Positions 3,186 to 63,947 of a DNA stretch of 64,000 nucleotides are shown here, one piece after another (the stretch's first letter is position 1; every line of letters starts with the position of its first letter). The translations under genes were made by a program, and so were the position numbers. The stretch comes from a virus. Below the pieces are notes generated by a model, which saw only the letters and a list, made by a program, of their open reading frames with translations, was not told the DNA's origin and ran no database searches. The stretch lies in the IMG/VR virus record IMGVR_UViG_3300008266_000014, positions 91,531-155,530 of that record; one strand, 5' to 3'.

Positions 3186-3476
3186 ATGACCATCAAAGTT
3201 ATTCGACTTGTCAATGGTGAAGAATTGATCGGCAAGTATTCAGAAGCACCTACTCATGTTACTCTAGATAAGGTCGGAGTAGTTCAAATGATCCCAACCC
3301 AAAAAGGTGTAAATATTGGATTGTTCCCTTTTGCACCATATGCTGAAGAAGACTCGTTTAAATTTAGTCATGAACATATCGTGACAACCTTTACTCCCGC
3401 AACTGATCTACTTAACAACTACAACCAAATGTTTGGATCTGGGATACAAATTGCTGGTGCGGGTTCATTGAAGTAA
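3186..3476 (+). CDS. Conserved Sm-like small protein upstream of DNA polymerase
   Basis: IKVIRLVNGEELIG...YNQMFGSGI pattern; usual position in T4-like phages. Confidence 0.7.
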   Translation: MTIKVIRLVNGEELIGKYSEAPTHVTLDKVGVVQMIPTQKGVNIGLFPFAPYAEEDSFKFSHEHIVTTFTPATDLLNNYNQMFGSGIQIAGAGSLK

Positions 3477-3491
3477 TCTCCAAGAGGTAAT

Positions 3492-6029
3492 ATGCGTTTC
3501 TACACCAATGTTCATGTGAACAGTAGTTCTGCTTTTGTACGTGGGTACGAGGATGGAAAGAGGTTTCAGTATCGACAGGACTTCTCCCCATACCTCTTTG
3601 CTCCATCACAAATCCCAACGGGGTATAGAACCCTTGATGGTAAGTATGTAAAACCTCTGCATTTTACTGATGTGAGAGAAGCAAGAGATTTTCTGAAGAG
3701 GTATGAGGAAGTCTCAAACTTTGCTCTCTACGGTTCTAATATGTTTACGTATCAATGCATATACGACACATTCAAAGGCGAGATTGAATATAACGTCGAT
3801 GACATTAGTGTCGTATCTCTTGATATAGAAACATCAACGAAGAATGGTTTTCCAAATATTGCCCTTGCGGATAAAGAAGTAATCACTCTTTCTATGCGAA
3901 AGAATGGAAAGTGTGCAGTTATTGGTACGAGACCGTATACACCAAAGTCTGATGATATTGTTTATTATCAGTGTAAGAATGAGTCTGATCTTCTCACTAC
4001 ATTTCTTAATCTTTGGAATTCTGAAGAATGGAAACCAGATGTTGTGACTGGCTGGAACGTCGAGGTATTTGATATTCCCTATCTGTACGTTCGGATATCA
4101 AACATACTTGGTGAGAAGGAGGCAAAGAGAATGTCTCCATGGAAACTTGTTAACTCGAGGTCCATTAGTGCAGAGAATCAAGGTCCGTTTGTTTATGATC
4201 TGATTGGTATTTCAACTCTAGACTATCTTGCCTTATACAAAAAGTTCTCATACACACCTCAAGAGTCATATAAGCTCGATCACATTGCTGAATACGAGCT
4301 TGGTGAAAATAAACTAGACTACTCTGAATATGAATCGATGCATGAGTTTTATGTTCAGAATTACGAAAAGTTTATTGACTATAACATCCACGACGTTGTT
4401 CTTGTTGATAAGCTGGAAGAGAAGTTGAAGTTTATCGAGCAGGTATTTGCTATCGCATATGATGCGAAGGTCAACTACGTTGACACATTCACAACTGTTC
4501 GTATCTGGGATATTATTATTACCAATTATCTCCTCGACAAGAAGATCGTTGTTCCTCATCACAAGTCCGAGGTATTAGAGAAACGAATCGAGTACGATAG
4601 ACAAAAAGGTCCGATCGTTGGTGCATATGTGAAAGATCCTCAAGTTGGGTTACATAAATGGGTTTGTTCTTTCGATTTGAACTCTCTCTATCCTCACTTG
4701 ATCATGCAGTACAACATCTCACCTGAAACATATAAAGGATTGGAGAGTGATATAACAATCGAGAATCTTCTCGAAAGTGAAAAGAGTAATGATCTGATTA
4801 AGAGACTTGATGATACCAATCAAACAATGACTCCCAATGGTGCTCTGTTTGATAAAGACTTTAAAGGATTCTTACCAACGCTGATGGAGAACATGTACAA
4901 CGATCGTTCTGAGTGGAAGAAGCGAATGATCGAAGCAAAGAAGGCATATGAAAAGAATCCATCTCGTAAAATAAGTAATGAGATTGCTCGATGCCATAAC
5001 ATGCAAATGGCAAAGAAGATTCAATTGAACTCCTGCTACGGTGCTCTTGGTAACACCTACTTCAGATGGTATCAACGTAATCTTGCAGAAGCAATTACAA
5101 TGTCTGGCCAACTTTCTATTCGCTGGATGGAAAAGAACATCAACAAGTATCTAAACAAGTTGTTCAAGACTGATAATGAAGACTATGTGATTGCTTGTGA
5201 TACCGACTCGATGTACATTCGACTTGATCGCCTAGTGCAAACGATGTTCGAGGATGATTCTGATAAAGCGAAGATCGTGAAATTTCTTGATGATGTTTGT
5301 GAAAAGAAGATCCAACCCTTTATTGATAAGACGTATGAAGATCTTGGCAATTACATGCAAGTGATGGATCAGAAGATGGTAATGAAGCGTGAAGCGATTG
5401 CAGATAAAGGAATTTGGACAGGGAAGAAGCATTACATTCTCAATGTGTACAATAACGAAGGTGTACAGTATGCAGAACCAAAGTTGAAGATGCAGGGTAT
5501 TGAAGCTGTTCGTTCTTCAACCCCCTCAGCTTGTAGAAAGAACATTGAGAAAGCTCTTAAGATTATCATGAACAAAAATGAGAGTGATATGATTGAGTTC
5601 ATTCGCAACTTCAAAGAAGAATTCGTATCACTTCCTTTTGAAGAGATTGCTTTTCCAAGAGGCGTTAAAGATCTGAAAAAGTATGCTGATAGTTCTTCGA
5701 TCTACAGAAAATCAACTCCTATCCACGTTAAAGGATCGCTGATCTACAACAACCTTCTGAGGGAGTATAAGATGCAGGATAAATATCCTTTCATCGGCGA
5801 TGGAGATAAGGTCAAGTTTTCTTATCTTGTGAAGCCAAATCCTGCAAGAGATTCCGTTATTTCTTGCCCAGGTGAATTGCCTAAACAACTCGGTCTAGAA
5901 AAATACATCGACTACGATACCCAGTTTGATAAATCATTTCTGGAACCGATTCGCTCTATCACAGATGCCATTGGTTGGAAGACAGAAGTCAAACAACAAA
6001 GAGCAACATTGGAAGATCTTTTTGCATAG
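3492..6029 (+). CDS. gp43: Family B DNA polymerase (gp43)
   Basis: Exo I DIET, SFDLNSLYP, KIQLNSCYG, DTDS motifs. Confidence 0.98.
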   Translation: MRFYTNVHVNSSSAFVRGYEDGKRFQYRQDFSPYLFAPSQIPTGYRTLDGKYVKPLHFTDVREARDFLKRYEEVSNFALYGSNMFTYQCIYDTFKGEIEYNVDDISVVSLDIETSTKNGFPNIALADKEVITLSMRKNGKCAVIGTRPYTPKSDDIVYYQCKNESDLLTTFLNLWNSEEWKPDVVTGWNVEVFDIPYLYVRISNILGEKEAKRMSPWKLVNSRSISAENQGPFVYDLIGISTLDYLALYKKFSYTPQESYKLDHIAEYELGENKLDYSEYESMHEFYVQNYEKFIDYNIHDVVLVDKLEEKLKFIEQVFAIAYDAKVNYVDTFTTVRIWDIIITNYLLDKKIVVPHHKSEVLEKRIEYDRQKGPIVGAYVKDPQVGLHKWVCSFDLNSLYPHLIMQYNISPETYKGLESDITIENLLESEKSNDLIKRLDDTNQTMTPNGALFDKDFKGFLPTLMENMYNDRSEWKKRMIEAKKAYEKNPSRKISNEIARCHNMQMAKKIQLNSCYGALGNTYFRWYQRNLAEAITMSGQLSIRWMEKNINKYLNKLFKTDNEDYVIACDTDSMYIRLDRLVQTMFEDDSDKAKIVKFLDDVCEKKIQPFIDKTYEDLGNYMQVMDQKMVMKREAIADKGIWTGKKHYILNVYNNEGVQYAEPKLKMQGIEAVRSSTPSACRKNIEKALKIIMNKNESDMIEFIRNFKEEFVSLPFEEIAFPRGVKDLKKYADSSSIYRKSTPIHVKGSLIYNNLLREYKMQDKYPFIGDGDKVKFSYLVKPNPARDSVISCPGELPKQLGLEKYIDYDTQFDKSFLEPIRSITDAIGWKTEVKQQRATLEDLFA

Positions 6030-6037
6030 GAAATAAA

Positions 6038-6334
6038 ATGAGCAAACCTATTTTTGATCTTGATGATGTAGAGGACTTTGGGTTCTCTGCAGTCAGTGAA
6101 GACGAGCTCAAATCACTTGAAAGAGAGCTAAAACAGCAGGTTGAACAGAAAGAGCAAGAGCTATCGTTGACTTCGAAGGAGTACAAGGATAAACTAGAAG
6201 CTCTTTATAAACTAATTATGCCTTTGCTCTTGAATTTGCAAAAAGATCCAGAAAAAGAATATATCCTTTGGCCAGATAGGTCAAAGAAAATGACAGCGTT
6301 TATTGCAAGGGTAAACAAGATAGTTCAGGATTAA
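6038..6334 (+). CDS. Conserved hypothetical phage protein
   Basis: DFGFSAV...PLL.NL.KDPEKEYILWPDR; ATG 6038 after AGGA. Confidence 0.7.
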   Translation: MSKPIFDLDDVEDFGFSAVSEDELKSLERELKQQVEQKEQELSLTSKEYKDKLEALYKLIMPLLLNLQKDPEKEYILWPDRSKKMTAFIARVNKIVQD

Positions 6335-6335
6335 A

Positions 6336-6935
6336 ATGATTGTACAGACATTTGGTAATGGAGTGCCAATTGTAATCCTTAAAAACATTATAAAAGACAA
6401 ATATATCTTAGTAATGTTGAAAGAAATTGAACAGATTATCGTCAACAATCTGTTAGAAGATGCTTCATCGTCAACCTCTGCTATCAGCGATCTTAAAAGG
6501 ATTAAAAATAACAGAGGACTGTTTATCGATGACTATTATAATGAGAGACGCGATGAAAGTGATATACTTAACGTACATCAGATCGTCAATACAATACTCC
6601 TTGACGAATTAGAAAACAAACACCAGCTGTTCAGATATTTTTCGGCAACTAACTCCCATAACACGCTACTGAGTGTTTATACAAACAGCAACAGTTACTT
6701 CGAGCATTTTGATAGATCCGTTATAACAGCCATAACGTATTTGTGGAATCAACCAAAGAAGTTCACTGGCGGTAACCTATTATTCAATGAGTATGATATA
6801 CAGTATGAACCAGAGCTGGGGGATGTTGTTGTTTTTCCAGGTTTTGTTAGACATGAGGTTTCGGAAGTTCAAATGAACAACGATGATCCACTTCACGGAA
6901 GATATGCTATTTCACAATTCTTTCACATTAGATGA
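6336..6935 (+). CDS. 2OG-Fe(II) oxygenase (prolyl-hydroxylase-like)
   Basis: HFD...FTGG.L.F...FPG..RHEV...GR. Confidence 0.85.
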   Translation: MIVQTFGNGVPIVILKNIIKDKYILVMLKEIEQIIVNNLLEDASSSTSAISDLKRIKNNRGLFIDDYYNERRDESDILNVHQIVNTILLDELENKHQLFRYFSATNSHNTLLSVYTNSNSYFEHFDRSVITAITYLWNQPKKFTGGNLLFNEYDIQYEPELGDVVVFPGFVRHEVSEVQMNNDDPLHGRYAISQFFHIR

Positions 6936-7837
6936 TTAATTATATCGCACTTCTGGTAGCAATTTGCTTGTCTGCGGTTGCAGCTTACTTTTCAATACTA
7001 GGCCTTGCAGCAATCTTTGCAGCATCGTTCTGGCCGATTGTTATTATGGGGTCTGCTCTTGAAGCAGCCAAGGTTGTTGCTGCTTCATGGGCATTTAGGA
7101 ATTGGCACACAGCTCCTGCTTTCATAAAGTACTATCTTGCATCTGCTGTTGTTGTATTAATGTTCATTACATCAATGGGCACGTTTGGATATCTTTCAAA
7201 AGCTCACATTGAACAGACAGCATCGATTAGCGATGTGTCAGCTCAAGTTGATGTTTATGATGAAAGGATTAAATCACTAAATGAAACAATCGAAGCCAAC
7301 CGTAAACTTCTTAAACAGTACGACGAGGCAGTTGACCAAGTCATGGCACGCTCGACAGATTCAAAGGGGGCGGAACGTGCGCTCCAAATTAGAAAGACCC
7401 AACAGAAAGATCGTGGCAGGATTATGGAAGAAATCAGTTCTCTCCAGAAAGAAGTTTCAAAGGTCACTGCAGAGAGGGCTCCTCTTATCTCTCAAGTTAA
7501 GAAAGTTGAAAGGGAAGTGGGTCCTATTAAGTACATTGCCGAACTCTTTATCGATAAAGCTGATGATACGTTTTTGGAGAAGACAGTTCGGTGGGTAATT
7601 ATTATGATTGTTGCGGTATTTGATCCTCTTGCTGTTTTGCTATTGATCGCTGCTAATCAAGGTATCCTCAGAGCCAAGCGATATCAGAAAGCAATGAACA
7701 CAAGAATCAAGAATAAATGGCAGCCAGAAAAAGATGAAGCAGCTGAGAAGAGGTATCAAAAATTGGTTTCGTTGATTGGAAAGGGATCAAAGAAGAAGAT
7801 CTCGATTGACAAAGATAAAATAAGGAAGATGACATGA
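6932..7837 (+). CDS. Membrane protein with coiled coil
   Basis: N-terminal hydrophobic helices, central heptads, FDPLAVLLL C-terminal TM segment. Confidence 0.75.
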   Translation: MINYIALLVAICLSAVAAYFSILGLAAIFAASFWPIVIMGSALEAAKVVAASWAFRNWHTAPAFIKYYLASAVVVLMFITSMGTFGYLSKAHIEQTASISDVSAQVDVYDERIKSLNETIEANRKLLKQYDEAVDQVMARSTDSKGAERALQIRKTQQKDRGRIMEEISSLQKEVSKVTAERAPLISQVKKVEREVGPIKYIAELFIDKADDTFLEKTVRWVIIMIVAVFDPLAVLLLIAANQGILRAKRYQKAMNTRIKNKWQPEKDEAAEKRYQKLVSLIGKGSKKKISIDKDKIRKMT

Positions 7838-54726: not shown

Positions 54727-54803
54727 GTGAGAGTGGCCGAGCGGTCTAAGGCGACAGTCTGCAAAACTGTTCTTCGTGGGTTCGAATCCCACCTCTCATT
54801 CCA
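54727..54803 (+). tRNA. tRNA-Cys (GCA)
   Basis: GTGAGAG/CTCTCAT acceptor, ACAGT-CTGCAAA-ACTGT, TTCGAAT, U73 discriminator, CCA. Confidence 0.95.
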
Positions 54804-58205: not shown

Positions 58206-59429
58206 ATGATCAACTACGGAATGTTTACTGAATACGGCAATAGTGTCGTGGATGGTGTTGTGATTGCTGCCAAGCAGATTGGTTGGTCTCCAAAGGAAGT
58301 GATTGACATTCTGGATGACATCTCTACTGTGCGCGGGCTGCACGAAGCAGGGGATACCGAAGTTCGTGAGCGTGTCTATGCAGCAATCTTCAAGGAGGCA
58401 GTATGATTCAGGCGTACATCGATGATCTCTACGAGAAGGTAATATATCTATGTGAGATCAGAGGGGAGATGAGTCCCGAGGCAAACGCAATCACAGAAGA
58501 GCAGATTGCGAACATAATGAAGATGATCAAGGATGCAGAGGAGAAACAATATGCTAACCAGAGATGAATTCCAGGACATGATGGATGAAACATATCCCCC
58601 CTACAAGGCATTTGGCATTGAGATTGGTGCTGGTAGAGTGATAAGAGAGTGTGATCCAGAGCTCTTTAATGTTCTCTATCACGACTATATGAACAGCATG
58701 GAAACGGAGGAAGCATAATGCTAACTGAAAAGCAAAAGGGATTGTTCACACTTCTCGAGTTCGATGTCAACAGCGAAGATGTACTGCGGGAGCGACACAA
58801 GATGCTCGTTAAGGAGTACGGTGCAGTAAAAGACTTCACTCGCTGGCTGCAGAAGATTCTTGAGCATCGCTGGGCAGAAGATCGCCGGAGGAATTCAACT
58901 CCCTATCTTGGAGATTAATAAAATAGTAACTAAAAATATTTTCAAATACTTGTTGACCAACCACAAATAGTTTGAAGCTCCTGCACTGATCTACATGGAT
59001 GAAGTGCAGCATGAGTCGCGCGGTGAGAATCCAGTGTGTGTTGTTCCGATGGATGTTGAATAAAAGGAGATCATCATGTACACATTCGACGATAACGCTT
59101 TTAGTGATCTGCACAAGGATGCATTCGGTTTTCGTCCAGGCGAGAACTACTGGACATGGATGGGTGCAGCTAGCGATGATGATAAGCAGAAGGAATGGGA
59201 TTTTCTGATCCGAACAATGCACCAGCGCATGAAGGAAGAACACGAGGAAGAACAACGCTGCATTAAGGTGTTCGAAGATCGTATCGATAACCTGATGCAT
59301 ACTGGCACCACTCGCGAGAAGATCATCACATGGTTGATGGATGCCGAGGATGCATTGGGCGACATAGAATACTTTGAGTTCCTGGTGGGACTCCCCTACG
59401 GATATATCAAGAAGAACTACAAGATGTAA
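58206..59429 (+). CDS. Small early ORFs (58206-58406, 58551-58718, 58718-58918, 59076-59429 and one short ORF from 58403)
   Basis: GGAGG/AGGAG RBSs; GTTGACC boxes with TTGACC at 58149 and 58953. Confidence 0.65.
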
Positions 59430-59464: not shown

Positions 59465-59492
59465 AGCCCCAGGATGTCCTGGGGCTTTTTTT
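59465..59492 (+). terminator. Intrinsic terminator closing the ordinary early region
   Basis: AGCCCCAGGA-TG-TCCTGGGGCT followed by T-run. Confidence 0.85.
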
Positions 59493-59639
59493 GTCTGTTA
59501 TTTTTCCCATTATTTTTCCTGTTTTTTTTCCTGTTTTATTCCTACAGGATTACGGGAAGAGTTCCTACTCTTTTCCTACACTACTTCACTGGAAGATTCA
59601 CTTCGAGATACGCTAGCAGCTTCCTGCCAGGTCTTATTG

Positions 59640-59856
59640 AACTACTAACCTACACCTACCCTCATCTACCACATCCACTACACACCCCACAACCAACATC
59701 CCACATCAACAACTCACATCCAATCTAACATAACACCCTACATCATCTTCCCACATCCCACAACACACATCTTCACCTTATCAATCTCATAACATTATCA
59801 AACTATTAACACTATATCAAACCACATACAATTAAAACATAATCTATTAAACTATA
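59640..59856. other. G-free (+ strand) non-coding tract with CACATC repeats
   Basis: No G between 59639 and 59857; the minus strand is therefore C-free. Confidence 0.95.
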
Positions 59857-59862
59857 GATTAT
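59839..59862. repeat. 9-bp inverted repeat at the G-free/C-free switch point
   Basis: ATAATCTAT-taaact-ATAGATTAT. Confidence 0.85.
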
Positions 59863-60035
59863 TGAAATAGTAAGATATGAATTTATTAATGAGTGTTATT
59901 AAAATGTTAAGATGAAGTGGATAGAGGTGTTGTTAATAAAATGTTAAGTTTTGTGGGTAAAATGAATGAAGATTAGATAGATGTTTTTGAATAAAGTAAA
60001 ATTGGTTTTTTGTATTGGGTTGATAGAAAATTTAA

Positions 60036-60064
60036 ATGAACTTTTTATGTGGGTGTGATATGAT
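60036..60064 (+). promoter_or_regulatory. Putative promoter of the C-less operon
   Basis: ATGAAC-N17-TATGAT with extended -10 TG; contains the lone C (60041). Confidence 0.5.
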
Positions 60065-60103
60065 TTGTTTGTAGTAATTAATTTTAATTAGTGGGAGAGA
60101 TAG

Positions 60104-60544
60104 ATGGAAAAGATTGAATTTAGTAAGAGTGTGAATATTAATGAAGTGGAGAGAGTTATTAAAAAAGAGTATGAGTATTTGAATAATGGTTTTGAGTTTG
60201 AAGGTGTGATTGAGTTTATGAAAAAAAATGGAAGTGGAGTTTATGAGTTAATGTTTGGTTGTAGAGGTGGAATGGAAGATATTATTAAAAATGATATGAT
60301 TAAGAGTGAGGAAGAATGTTTTAATGATTTAGTAATGGGTTGTTATAGTAGTGAAAATAGTTTGGATGAAAGTATTGAGTTATTAATGGAAGAAAGTGAT
60401 TTTGATAATGTGGAAGAATTAAAAGAGAGTGTAATGGAATATTATGGTAAGATTGAAGAGATGTTTAAAGATGAAGATGATTATGTAATGGGGTTTGGTT
60501 TTTTTGAAGAAGATGTTAGTATTTTTATTAATGTGGAGGTATAA
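60104..60544 (+). CDS. C-less ORF1, highly acidic 146-aa protein
   Basis: GGGAG RBS; zero C in the CDS; no P/A/T/Q/H. Confidence 0.85.
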   Translation: MEKIEFSKSVNINEVERVIKKEYEYLNNGFEFEGVIEFMKKNGSGVYELMFGCRGGMEDIIKNDMIKSEEECFNDLVMGCYSSENSLDESIELLMEESDFDNVEELKESVMEYYGKIEEMFKDEDDYVMGFGFFEEDVSIFINVEV

Positions 60545-60545
60545 A

Positions 60546-60770
60546 ATGAGTAAGTATAAAATGATTAATGTTATAATGGGAAGAAATTATGATTATAATG
60601 ATAAGTTATTATATGGTAGAAGAAGTTTGAAATATTATGGATATATTAATGATGAAGATTATTTGAAAATTGTTGAAAGTTTAAGATTGATTGATTGTGT
60701 AGTAAATGTTTATAAAAAGGTAAGAAATAAAATGGATTGTTATGTAAGAATTATTGTGGAAGAGAAATAA
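60546..60770 (+). CDS. C-less ORF2, basic Tyr-rich 74-aa protein
   Basis: GGAGG RBS before ATG 60546, 1 nt after the ORF1 stop; zero C. Confidence 0.8.
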   Translation: MSKYKMINVIMGRNYDYNDKLLYGRRSLKYYGYINDEDYLKIVESLRLIDCVVNVYKKVRNKMDCYVRIIVEEK

Positions 60771-60875
60771 TTTGTGAATTGATATTTGAAAATTGATAGT
60801 TATTTTTAATTAGTATTTATTTGTAGTTGATGAGAAAATGTATTTGTTGTGATTATTAATTAAAGGGGATTAAAA

Positions 60876-61136
60876 ATGAGTGGAATTGTAAAAGTTATAG
60901 ATGTTAAAGATGGTGGTTTTTTTGATAATGGTTTGGTTTATGGTAGTTTGGATAATGTTGTTTTGGAAAAAGATGGTGAGTTTATGATGTGTGAAGGTAT
61001 TTTGATTTGGGAAGATTATGATGAGGAAGAATTGAGTTATATTTGGAGTAGTTGGAAAGATTGTTTTGATAATGGTGAAGAAGGATATTTTAAATTTATT
61101 AATGGTGTTTGGGTTGAAAATTGTAAGGTTGTGTAA
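60876..61136 (+). CDS. C-less ORF3, acidic 86-aa protein
   Basis: AAAGGGGATTAAAAATG initiation region; zero C. Confidence 0.85.
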   Translation: MSGIVKVIDVKDGGFFDNGLVYGSLDNVVLEKDGEFMMCEGILIWEDYDEEELSYIWSSWKDCFDNGEEGYFKFINGVWVENCKVV

Positions 61137-61155
61137 TTATTAAAGGGGATTAAAA

Positions 61156-61383
61156 ATGAAAATTGAAATTGAGATTAGTGATAAGATGATTGAGAAGTTT
61201 ATTAGTAAAATGGAAATTGAAGAGAAGTTAAGTTTTAGTAAAGAGGATATTGTAAAGAAAATAAAATTAAAATTGTATGATGATTTTAGTGATGAGGATT
61301 TAGATTTATTAGATGAGATTTTGTGGGATATGTATAATAATGAATGGTTTGAATATGAATATTTGGATGAAAATGAAGAGTAA
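61156..61383 (+). CDS. C-less ORF4, highly acidic 75-aa protein
   Basis: Same AAAGGGGATTAAAAATG initiation region; zero C. Confidence 0.85.
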   Translation: MKIEIEISDKMIEKFISKMEIEEKLSFSKEDIVKKIKLKLYDDFSDEDLDLLDEILWDMYNNEWFEYEYLDENEE

Positions 61384-61402
61384 TTAAAGTTAAAAGAATT
61401 TT

Positions 61403-61436
61403 AAGAAGAGTTACATTTTTTGTAACTCTTTTTTTT
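61403..61436 (+). terminator. Intrinsic terminator of the C-less operon
   Basis: AAGAGTTACA-TTTTT-TGTAACTCTT followed by T-run; holds 3 of the 4 Cs in 59853-61536. Confidence 0.88.
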
Positions 61437-61731
61437 ATTTAAAATGTTAATAAAAAAATAATAGTTATATTTAGAATGGTTATATTATTTAGTGTGGTGG
61501 GGGGTAGTTTTAGAATTTATAGTTGAAATTTAGATGCGCCTAGTCTCCAACTCGCCTCAGACACACTCTATATCACGCAGAAAAACACGAAGAGGCCAAA
61601 ACTTCCAAATCATTTCAAAAACAAATCTCACTGAAATTTTTTTCACGCCAAAAACCGAAAAAAAGACGAAGTCAAAAACACGAAGCGGAATAACTAATAA
61701 ATATTGATATTACTTGTTTGGATATAGAATA

Positions 61732-62097
61732 ATGAAATCCTTTTCAGCCTTTGTCCAAGAAGACATGGTTAATTACAATCACACTAATCAACAATGGCAA
61801 TTGCGTCATGATGACAAAGGTCATGGATTCAAGAGTGAGCATTCTAGAGTAATTCTGAAAGATGCAGTACCTCATGTTGATCATGATGCGCATGAGGCTG
61901 GTAAACGAGTATATGCGTACATGCATGGAACGCCAGTGAAATCAATACCAGAAAAGCACAAGAAACGAGAGATTAAGTTTAATCCAAATAACATCGATCA
62001 TCCGTTTATTCACAAGGATGATCATTCACCAGTCACTCATGCTAACTATGTAGAGTTTGATGGGCGTAATGTGTATGCTCATTACAAATCTCAATAA
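61732..62097 (+). CDS. His-rich late protein with capsid-targeting-like N-terminus
   Basis: MKSFSAFVQED; AATAAATA late-promoter variant upstream. Confidence 0.7.
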   Translation: MKSFSAFVQEDMVNYNHTNQQWQLRHDDKGHGFKSEHSRVILKDAVPHVDHDAHEAGKRVYAYMHGTPVKSIPEKHKKREIKFNPNNIDHPFIHKDDHSPVTHANYVEFDGRNVYAHYKSQ

Positions 62098-62129: not shown

Positions 62130-63947
62130 ATGTACAGATTCAAATCATTTCTTAGAGAGTATGTCGAGATCAAGGAATATCTGACTGATAAGCAGAGGGC
62201 TCGCTATTCGAGGATCAAGTTGACTCCAGAGGCCAAGAAAGCGACCGATCCTTTCTTTGGGGAGTCTGATCTTGTTCGCGAAGAGTTGCCATCGGATTAT
62301 GATCATGACAAGAGTGAAGTTCATAGAGAGGTGGAAAAGCATCTAGGAAAGGATATTTCTTCTGATGAGTATGTGAGTGGAATCACAAGGGACAAGTATG
62401 GTCGTGAGGCTCGTATTGGGAGAATGATCAAGGATAAGGGGTTGCAGGGTAAGTTTGCAAGTGATAATACAAGGGCAGGCAGCAAGGCAGGAAAGAATCA
62501 TTATGTGACGATTGTTCGTGGAACCGAGGTTGCAGGGCAGACAAACAGTGCACCGGACAAGAATCATCCAAAAGGGCATTCATGGGGTGATATGAGCTGC
62601 AAGAATGTCGACACAGGAACAAACAGAGAATATCTTGATGATGAGATTCGTCATGGATCTGTTGTGGTAAGAGTGCATGATCACAATGATCAGGAGATCT
62701 ATAGAGCGACCCTACATCCGCACGAGAATCAAAATGGAGATGTTGCCTATGCCGTGAATAGTGAATACGGAGTGAAGCATCCTTCATTTACCAATCACGC
62801 ACACGATGTTGCAAAGAGAATATCTGGAAAGCCAGATGTATCGAATGGAACAGATATGATCTATAACATTCATCCTGATGTATACAATGATAATGAGGCA
62901 GACACAATTGTACACCCAGGAGCAACAAAAGATCATCTTCATGCAATGATCGATCAGGCAGAAGACAATATTGATGATTTCTATAGAGATGACTACAAGG
63001 CAATTCTGAATCACAATCAAATTGATGACAAACATCTAAATCGTCTATACAATTTGTCAAAGAAGTTCGATATATCGGACGAGCACGATAACCATTTCAC
63101 ATCATCGGATTCAGAAAGAATCACGGCAAGACAACTAAAATCTGATTTGTTGTCTCATGAAAAGGTTCCGGAAAAAATTCTTCTAGACGCATTGAATAGC
63201 CCTGATAGAGGAACAAGAATTGATGTTGCGCTAAACAAGAATGCAACAGAAAAGGTTCTCGATACCGCATTGAGTGATGACACGGACGAAGTAAAGAGAT
63301 ATGCCGTAGAAAATCCAAATATGTCCGAAAAGCAACTATCACGTGTCTTTGATCATCCAAACGGAAGACCTCTTTTTGGTCATGTGACAAGATATGTTGC
63401 ATCAAGACATCCAAAAATCACAAGCAAACTGATTGATAAGATTCAAAATGATCCGGATGAATACGTAAGACAAGGAGTGGCATATCACAAGGCTCATGTG
63501 TTCAATTCTGATCAGATCAATAAAGCAATTAATGATACTCCAGATACCGCAATGTCGGTAATCAACGGATCATACAAACGAAACTTTGGTGGCGATACAA
63601 GAGAAATAAAAAATAGCAATTTTACCAAACAACATCTTGATGATGCAGTGAAAACAGGAAACGGTGATGTGATCACTGCAGCAATGTATCACCCTCTTGC
63701 AGAAAGAACTCATCTCGAGGCAGCAATTAATCACGAAAACTTTGCAACAAGACTCGCAGCAATCAATCACCCAGACATGACCAAAGAAGATCTTCAAAAA
63801 ATGGCTGAGCACGATCCGTCTGATTCCGTCAAAACCGAGGCAGAACGAAAACTAGGACATAGATTCGAAAAACGATACAAATTACAAAAAAGCGGAGAAT
63901 ACGATTGGCAAGAACCACCAAAAGGTGGATGGGTAGACTTTCGTTGA
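62130..63947 (+). CDS. HEAT/LRV-repeat protein with capsid-targeting-like N-terminus
   Basis: MYRFKSFLRE; repeated VR..VA.(N/H)P helical units in the C-terminal half. Confidence 0.75.
   Translation: MYRFKSFLREYVEIKEYLTDKQRARYSRIKLTPEAKKATDPFFGESDLVREELPSDYDHDKSEVHREVEKHLGKDISSDEYVSGITRDKYGREARIGRMIKDKGLQGKFASDNTRAGSKAGKNHYVTIVRGTEVAGQTNSAPDKNHPKGHSWGDMSCKNVDTGTNREYLDDEIRHGSVVVRVHDHNDQEIYRATLHPHENQNGDVAYAVNSEYGVKHPSFTNHAHDVAKRISGKPDVSNGTDMIYNIHPDVYNDNEADTIVHPGATKDHLHAMIDQAEDNIDDFYRDDYKAILNHNQIDDKHLNRLYNLSKKFDISDEHDNHFTSSDSERITARQLKSDLLSHEKVPEKILLDALNSPDRGTRIDVALNKNATEKVLDTALSDDTDEVKRYAVENPNMSEKQLSRVFDHPNGRPLFGHVTRYVASRHPKITSKLIDKIQNDPDEYVRQGVAYHKAHVFNSDQINKAINDTPDTAMSVINGSYKRNFGGDTREIKNSNFTKQHLDDAVKTGNGDVITAAMYHPLAERTHLEAAINHENFATRLAAINHPDMTKEDLQKMAEHDPSDSVKTEAERKLGHRFEKRYKLQKSGEYDWQEPPKGGWVDFR

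Follow-up and report, generated by a model that had tools for sequence, protein, structure and literature searches.

In the T4-type phages RB49 and phi1, small ORFan early genes are organized in promoter-early stem-loop (PeSL) cassettes within a hyperplastic region (Arbiol et al. 2010, PMC2839356). Rho targets, for their part, are long, pyrimidine-rich stretches of RNA with C in excess over G, and avoidance of Rho shapes the composition of sense strands (Dierksheide et al. 2026, PMC13323073); in RNA viruses, limitation of cytidine triphosphate (CTP) and the action of viperin through 3'-deoxy-3',4'-didehydro-CTP (ddhCTP) have been proposed as pressures that lower C content (bioRxiv 10.1101/2020.06.20.162933). 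Here, we describe a cassette of small genes whose sense strand is almost devoid of cytosine, located at positions 59853 to 61536 on the + strand of the window, i.e., the terminal 64 kb of a 155,530-bp IMG/VR viral contig (IMGVR_UViG_3300008266_000014; genome estimated to be 86% complete). The source is a freshwater phage with 39% G+C, typed as a T4-like myovirus; it encodes a gp43-type DNA polymerase, a DnaB-type helicase, a primase, a ribonucleotide reductase, and PstS, and its polymerase shares only ~50% identity with those of its nearest cultured relatives, Synechococcus myoviruses.

As in PeSL cassettes, the genes in question are small ORFan early genes with sigma-70-like promoters (candidates, in our case) and terminators, shuffled as modules between close relatives. 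However, where PeSL elements carry poly-G/poly-C stem-loops, no G/C-rich stem-loop is present here, and what sets the block apart is that one base is missing; nothing base-free has been reported for PeSL. The purine bias by which bacterial sense strands avoid Rho likewise reflects a composition selected against Rho targeting, a role that we infer for Rho here. The bias operates quantitatively across whole genomes, however, and disfavors T as well, whereas the present 1.7-kb block combines zero C with 38% T and recoded proteins. Strand asymmetries linked to transcription or replication (deamination, GC skew, mitochondrial gradients) also raise G and T and lower C on the nontemplate or displaced strand, yet known skews are modest, never reach 100%, and neither end at terminators nor remove five amino acids. 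Avoidance of restriction sites and other motifs, including ACA-less, MazF-resistant mRNAs, resembles the cassette in that sequence features required by an enzyme have been removed; there, particular words are lost, whereas here a whole letter is missing, in any context, from one strand of one block. Finally, the proposal on CTP and viperin, made for coronaviruses, shares the notion of C as a costly or dangerous nucleotide for a virus but concerns a gradual, genome-wide drift, not a block of genes in a DNA phage that lacks C outright.

A pattern scan for C- or G-free runs of at least 150 nt found none in T4, RB49, KVP40, HTVC008M, or T5 (at most two mismatches allowed) and none in five Synechococcus myoviruses (no mismatch); the lack of the feature in model phages may be why it has gone unnoticed. 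A full-text literature search returned no description of base-free phage genes, in line with an earlier sequence-only reading of this DNA, which knew of no described equivalent. What this locus contributes is evidence at the population level, a recoded member of a normal protein family, and a conserved pairing of a G-free arm with a C-free block.

A cytosine-free tract and its proteins

The tract contains 624 A, 647 T, 409 G, and 4 C residues, the latter at positions 60041, 61414, 61426, and 61428, and its interior (60042 to 61413) forms an uninterrupted C-free run of 1372 nt. Outside the tract, no C-free run is longer than 52 nt within the window or 61 nt genome-wide. This base count confirmed the tract as the sequence-only reading had described it and likewise bore out that it is not AT-rich low-complexity DNA, with G at 24%; T rises to 38%, versus 27% in the window, and the AT skew is flipped. 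Chance was dismissed in that reading as well, and rightly so: at the window's 17.7% C, a C-free run of 1372 nt has a probability of ~1e-116. Conditioned on the four protein sequences and the codon usage of the genome, 95 C-containing codons were expected, and the probability of finding none is 1e-61. The proteins indeed lack Pro, Ala, Thr, Gln, and His throughout their 381 residues (P = 1e-44), and all four Cs fall within the 528 noncoding nucleotides of the tract. C is the only base that an open reading frame (ORF) can lack, a point not made in the sequence-only reading: T and G are required for start codons, T and A for stop codons, and G for Shine-Dalgarno sites. Because no G-C pairs can form without C, the RNA is predicted to be nearly unstructured, with a folding energy of -0.08 kcal/mol per nt compared with -0.21 +/- 0.04 elsewhere in the window. 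An Rfam search yielded nothing above threshold, and the DNA of the tract had no match in the phages collection.

The four ORFs (146, 74, 86, and 75 aa) and the terminator (61403 to 61433) were found as described before, and the ORFs are real; for ORF1, the ratio of nonsynonymous to synonymous substitutions (dN/dS), computed within the C-free code, is 0.14 and indicative of purifying selection. The ORF3 protein is present in identical form on 23 or more contigs, ten of which, assembled independently from different JGI and NCBI samples, are 98.8 to 100% identical to the window over the whole tract; the artifact that the sequence-only reading had asked to be checked thus met ten independent assemblies carrying the same tract.

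Clustered at 50% identity, the family of ORF1 has 25 representatives. Not one Pro, Ala, Thr, Gln, or His occurs in 13 of the 30 family proteins tabulated, and these residues amount to at most 5% in the remaining intact members, versus 23% in the ordinary genes of the phage. A distant member lies on an 82-kb contig of ~50% G+C (L010), within a 505-nt C-free run in which G reaches 36 to 45%. The structure of ORF1 was predicted with confidence (predicted local distance difference test [pLDDT] score, 92.5), and fold searches gave no clear match (best E value in Foldseek against PDB, 0.14; best Z score in VIA-align wide, 4.0; template-modeling [TM] score in the atlas, <0.4), with matches in BFVD being uncharacterized phage proteins only. 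No PHROG or Pfam family was found for the four ORFs or for the alternative genes of a related contig, L006, and searches with ORF1 by itself returned neither a match in the phages collection nor a relative in viral_contigs.

ORF3 represents the converse case, being 43% identical to an 87-aa protein of another contig (L002) whose family, with 33 homologues, uses ordinary residues. Where the aligned normal homologues have T, T, Q, and A, ORF3 of the window has L, V, E, and M. Since ORF3 is thus a recoded member of a normal family, the constraint is a property of the cassette and not of one protein family. The C-free state has forced these proteins into a 15-letter amino acid alphabet.

Persistence and limits of the cytosine-free state

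The closest informative relative, L006, comes from a separate sequencing run and is 95% identical to the window over ORF1 and the leader. Its tract has one C in 1653 nt, at the equivalent of position 60041. The 56 substitutions between the two comprise 32 A<->G, 14 A<->T, and 10 G<->T changes and none involving C, which by comparison takes part in 21 of the 54 single-nucleotide differences in the flanks. Similarly, none of the 23 variable columns in an alignment of the C-free leader of the window, L038, and L039 contains a C. The latter two represent the same locus in a related phage, where the terminator upstream, the T-rich units, and the G-free arm recur, as does the promoter of the ORF1 type, again with one C. 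The number of C-free genes is four in the window, five in L006, and nine, over 2.9 kb, in L038; ORF1- and ORF4-type genes are common to all three, and the genes in between differ, which amounts to modular replacement. L006 and L038 thus contain what the sequence-only reading had proposed to look for at this locus in related contigs, namely, other genes that are C-less as well. Among 30 genes tabulated from eight contigs, all but two have zero or one C; the exceptions listed for this table are three genes of contig L021, with 6 to 29 Cs, and one gene not counted by this measure. In short, the C-free state persists through sequence divergence and gene swapping and covers noncoding parts, and these comparisons argue that selection keeps C out of the cassette.

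Within the C-free array of L038, positions 1309 to 1656 and 3208 to 3576 hold two ORF1-family paralogues that have diverged, and a second paralogous pair consists of the genes at 2356 (54 aa) and 2963 (61 aa); given these pairs, the array grows by duplication besides exchange. In contig L020, exactly 20 nt (window 59923 to 59942) are missing, and with them one copy of the 18-nt direct repeat of the leader. In L021, sense-strand C climbs over seven consecutive small genes (positions 4681 to 7374), from 1.1 through 3.3, 6.6, 11.0, 15.9, and 17.4 to 20.2%; the first three are preceded by one repeated promoter (TTGTAC-N17-TATAAT) and the fourth by another type (TTGACC...).

The depletion is bounded by promoters and terminators, a pattern to which the leader upstream of P1 and the ~100 nt beyond the terminator of the window conform less closely. 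In L002 to L005 and L021, the drop to 1 to 7% C starts just after the -35 hexamer (TTGTAC) of a near-consensus promoter and stops at the terminator. In L010, the C-free run starts just after a -35-like TTGACT, the role of which is less sure, and three Cs then follow in the terminator stem. In L038, three Cs lie in the terminator hairpin, and the C-free state extends ~35 nt past the terminator. In the window, Cs 61414, 61426, and 61428 form the only three G-C pairs of the cassette terminator, compared with seven in the ordinary terminator at 59465. That these limits coincide with promoter and terminator argues for a constraint acting through transcription. Promoters, leaders, and spacers are C-free as well, which rules out the idea, raised in the sequence-only reading, that independence from tRNAs for C-containing codons is the cause.

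The same reading had called the locus a four-gene operon. While the genes and the terminator stand, at least two sigma-70-like promoter candidates (P1, before ORF1, and P2, before ORF3) and the mosaic of swappable genes do not fit a simple operon; rather, judging from its sequence, the unit looks like promoters plus genes plus a terminator. P1 and P2 were read from the sequence itself and are conserved in relatives; a generic promoter scan returned no more sites than in shuffled sequence. No convincing promoter was found for the leader (59857 to 60035), and a candidate P0, with its -35 element in the loop of the junction hairpin, was dropped, as the loop differs in L038. No hairpins were found between the cassette genes, leaving a single terminator.

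Immediately upstream, and absent from the sequence-only reading, the tract abuts a G-free arm on the same strand (59640 to 59856; 217 nt, 79 C, 0 G, and 41 pyrimidine-C dimers), which is the top window of the 64 kb in terms of C minus G (+38, 5.8 standard deviations). Across the window, L038, and L039, the arm has 27 variable columns, none with G, compared with 8 of 24 in the segment before it. The junction (59801 to 59900) is 81% A+T, with GGG clusters near the 5' end. Being long, C-over-G, G-poor, and unstructured, with spaced pyrimidine-C dimers, the arm has the sequence traits that characterize Rho utilization (rut) sites, and we consider it a candidate for such a loading site or for an insulator.

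Possible reasons for excluding cytosine

The explanation that we favor, with a probability of roughly one in three (0.35), is that messages of the cassette cannot be aborted through C. The cassette is a selection-maintained set of small early genes with a sense strand without cytosine from promoters to terminator, and its messages would consequently use only A, G, and U. The presumed payoff is that RNA polymerase would always complete these messages, agents that abort transcription at C having no target. Rho, which requires pyrimidine-C dinucleotides for loading onto nascent RNA, would, if present in the host, be blind to them; CTP shortage would be unable to stall them, and CTP-analogue chain terminators (ddhCTP) would be unable to end them, both plausible ideas put forward in the sequence-only reading. 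The surroundings of the cassette fit this picture. A C-free block can neither be stopped by Rho nor encode a strong hairpin, which would explain why the phage brackets the cassette: on the left by a strong terminator and the G-free, C-rich, unstructured arm, potentially a near-ideal Rho loading site, and on the right by the weak terminator and a second C-rich, G-poor stretch. This bracketing, seen in the sequence, supports a putative role for Rho, a factor that the sequence-only reading had not considered. Escherichia coli rho (tabC) mutants restrict T4 through overtermination of early transcripts, CTP is typically the scarcest nucleoside triphosphate, and ddhCTP acts only at C.

Several points weigh against this explanation. 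Viperins, for one, are rare. Complete exclusion of C seems to go beyond what Rho by itself would call for, given that Rho works over stretches of RNA and that short ORFs, if translated well, should be shielded from it already. Moreover, the conserved C-free leader (59857 to 60035) upstream of P1, the promoter spacers, and ~100 nt past the terminator are perhaps not transcribed. The arm can equally be read on the opposite strand as a mirror-image C-free arm, which would point to a cause at the DNA level. Lastly, from sequence alone, RNA without C, a displaced strand without C, and a template without G cannot be told apart; we rank the RNA-level explanation highest of these three.

Unlikely, though deserving serious attention, is that the hazard lies in the displaced DNA strand. 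On a single infecting genome, the nontemplate strand of very strongly transcribed early units would be exposed in single-stranded form time and again, in the transcription bubble or in R-loops. Cytosine-specific attack would then make C costly, be it deamination (spontaneous or by an enzyme) with subsequent excision of uracil or cleavage by a single-strand nuclease that, like T4 Endo IV, is specific for dC; mutation would remove Cs, and selection would prevent their return. Attack on single-stranded cytosine was also among the ideas of the sequence-only reading. Transcription raises C-to-T change on the nontranscribed strand in E. coli, and mitochondrial strand gradients track the time spent single stranded. 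The effect described here is indeed strand specific, tracks transcription units, and has C replaced mostly by T (38% versus 27%); the ban is independent of context, with the leftover Cs of L002 standing in AC, TC, and GC contexts, and Cs are tolerated where the DNA would be duplex or hairpinned (the -35 element and the terminator stem). The stepwise rise from 1.1 to 20.2% over the seven cassettes of L021 would fit as well, as would the mirror-image left arm, given a symmetric cause. However, late genes of this genome that are highly expressed have not been cleared of C in this way, the replacements in ORF3 (Gln to Glu, Thr to Leu or Val, and Ala to Met) are not simple products of C-to-T change, and if mutation bias were the sole cause, the rate of C-to-T change would have to exceed that of T-to-C more than ~650-fold. 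Neither a deaminase nor a nuclease was identified, and the arm, with its 36% C, would itself be exposed if ever transcribed rightward.

Distinctly less probable is an avoidance of guanine in the template, likewise raised in the sequence-only reading, by which the first genes would be expressed regardless of whether the phage or a host defense alters guanines (7-deazaguanine derivatives, ADP-ribosylation, or glycosylase attack), a template without G staying readable. The gene content of the phage gives some reason to consider this: positions 71904 to 73749 of the genome encode a QueE-like radical-SAM protein (weak NCBIfam matches only), a small phosphoribosyltransferase-like protein, and a QueD-like protein (73336 to 73749), and FolE, above the Pfam cutoff, is encoded 11 kb away (84365 to 84889). 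The phosphoribosyltransferase-like gene, lying between the QueE- and QueD-like genes, might represent a nucleotide-level route for a deazapurine. Yet known systems need QueC and DpdA/TGT, and neither QueC (PF06508) nor DpdA/TGT (PF01702, even at E <= 10) had a match in the 155 kb available (86% of the genome); FolE and TGT are also missing from the 82-kb contig L010, which is, however, only 36% complete. In addition, the rest of the phage's genes all have G in their templates and need to be read nonetheless, and 7-deaza changes leave the pairing face untouched.

We are more skeptical still of an R-loop replication origin of the T4 oriE/oriF type at the junction (59853), where unstructured early transcripts with maximal G-over-C skew would engage in stable R-loops and thereby prime DNA synthesis and the genes would be passengers. 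The mirror-image skew switch at an inverted repeat, the AT-rich junction, the iteron-like CACATC units, the GGG clusters, the almost unstructured RNA, and the small number of such blocks per genome would all be in keeping with an origin. In contrast, the C-free state halts abruptly at terminators instead of fading, the cassettes of L002, L021, and L010 are depleted of C without a mirror arm, and R-loop propensity requires neither zero C nor recoded proteins. Cumulative GC skew also rises steadily over the 155 kb, with no turn or minimum here, a weak argument in that T4-like skew is dominated by gene orientation.

Lower again we place the evasion of motifs, which the sequence-only reading had put forward: without C, palindromic restriction or methylation sites containing G or C and most motifs of MazF/PemK-type RNases (such as ACA and UAC) are impossible, such that the cassette or its mRNA would escape many enzymes. 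While this follows directly from the composition, and while the movement of cassettes between phages of different G+C content (39% versus ~50% for L010) would favor a general solution, the fit is poor. Partly depleted relatives retain C in ACA, TC, and GC contexts alike, a cut elsewhere in the genome would be equally lethal, leaving little to gain from local loss of sites, and the coincidence with promoter and terminator is left unexplained. Finally, an artifact, be it C-to-T conversion (by chemistry or by an enzyme) or a chimeric assembly, suspected on account of adjoining G-free and C-free stretches that resemble converted reads of two strands, was practically ruled out, given ten agreeing assemblies from two centers, diverged relatives that are alike, intact ORFs under purifying selection, and the stop codons that conversion would have made of all CAA, CAG, and CGA codons.

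Returning to the explanation at the level of the message, we also considered it in a broader form, together with its counterpart at the level of the displaced strand. Several phage lineages would then keep mobile, three-letter early genes in which the nucleic acid itself, besides the protein, is selected and which are immune to a widespread C-directed process, the target being either nascent RNA (through Rho, CTP supply, or chain terminators) or the displaced strand (through a nuclease or cytosine deaminase), with the G-free arm as part of the device; for this wider claim, we regard the arguments as evenly balanced. If true, in its RNA- or its DNA-level version, it would uncover a further dimension, new to us, in the conflict between phages and their hosts, along with a natural family of proteins made from 15 kinds of amino acids. 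Should the feature be functional, selection on message chemistry would have sufficient force to rid entire protein families of five amino acids, and a C-directed process in aquatic hosts (Rho, the supply of CTP, terminators of the viperin type, or attack on single-stranded cytosine) would be shaping phage genomes. It would also constitute a natural reduced-alphabet experiment, in which the ORF1 model is still confident, and a ready test object, as the native cassette and one with synonymously introduced C are directly comparable. It would further provide a rule by which to design expression modules lacking structure, invisible to Rho, and independent of CTP.

Feature map and neighboring genes

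Table 1. Features in and around the C-free cassette (window positions)
Feature	Position	Strand	Remarks
Strong intrinsic terminator of upstream 117-aa gene; 9-bp stem, 7 G-C pairs, T run	59465..59493	+	Kept in L038 and L039
Four T-rich units, 12-nt period, each closing with CC (TTTTTCC)	59486..59541	+	Conserved in relatives
G-free arm, 36% C, seven CACATC-type units spaced 13-14 nt (or 24-27 nt)	59640..59856	+	Predicted unstructured (minimum free energy, 0.0)
9-bp inverted repeat, loop at the G-free/C-free switch point	59839..59862	.	Stem conserved; loop different in L038
C-free leader with 18-nt direct repeat and TTTTGTATTGGG motif	59857..60035	+	TTTTGTATTGGG also near L010 cassette
Promoter candidate P1: -35-like ATGAAC (holds C 60041), 17-nt spacer, extended -10 TGaTATGAT	60036..60064	+	C conserved in L006, L038, and L039
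ORF1, 146 aa, acidic	60104..60544	+	Family founder, ~15-amino-acid alphabet
ORF2, 74 aa, basic; GGAGG Shine-Dalgarno within ORF1 end	60546..60770	+	Other C-free genes instead in L006 and L038
Promoter candidate P2, wholly C-free, TTGATG ... TGtGATTAT	60827..60856	+	Homologous to region before ORF1 homologue of L010 (shared TTGATGAGARAATGTRTTTGTT)
ORF3, 86 aa, C-free recoded member of otherwise C-containing family	60876..61136	+	Sequence comparison
ORF4, 75 aa, very acidic	61156..61383	+	81-85% aa identity in L006 and L038
Intrinsic terminator, AT-rich stem, only three G-C pairs; Cs 61414, 61426, 61428	61403..61437	+	L010 and L038 terminators likewise hold three Cs
~100 nt C-free DNA beyond terminator	61438..61536	+	Not conserved: C-free state of L038 stops ~35 nt past terminator
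A/C-rich, G-poor right flank, 43 C and 20 G in 164 nt	61537..61700	+	Second C-over-G region bracketing the cassette

The cassette lies among small early-type genes, in line with the sequence-only reading, which placed it at the end of the early region. The gene on its 3' side (61732 to 62097) contains a Phage_L5_gp82 domain and is followed by one for a 605-aa His/Asp-rich protein (62130 to 63947), to which no family could be assigned and for which a search of viral_contigs returned no relatives. On the other side, at positions 58974 to 58975, ten other contigs of the same phage have 114 extra bases, including the ribosome-binding site and the start of a 52-aa gene; here, the record behind the window represents either a variant with a deletion or an assembly that has collapsed. 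Some 3.5 kb upstream of the C-depleted cassettes of L021 (JGI 3300012933, a 105-kb contig), positions 543 to 1229 encode a protein with an Acb3 domain, directed against the cyclic oligonucleotide-based antiphage signaling system (CBASS), which fits the presence of counterdefense genes in such regions. The phage itself carries a tRNA-Cys(GCA) gene at window positions 54727 to 54803. Cys makes up 2.1% of the residues of the C-free proteins, versus 0.6% in the other proteins of the phage; this 3.5-fold excess is expected, since TGT is one of only 24 usable codons.

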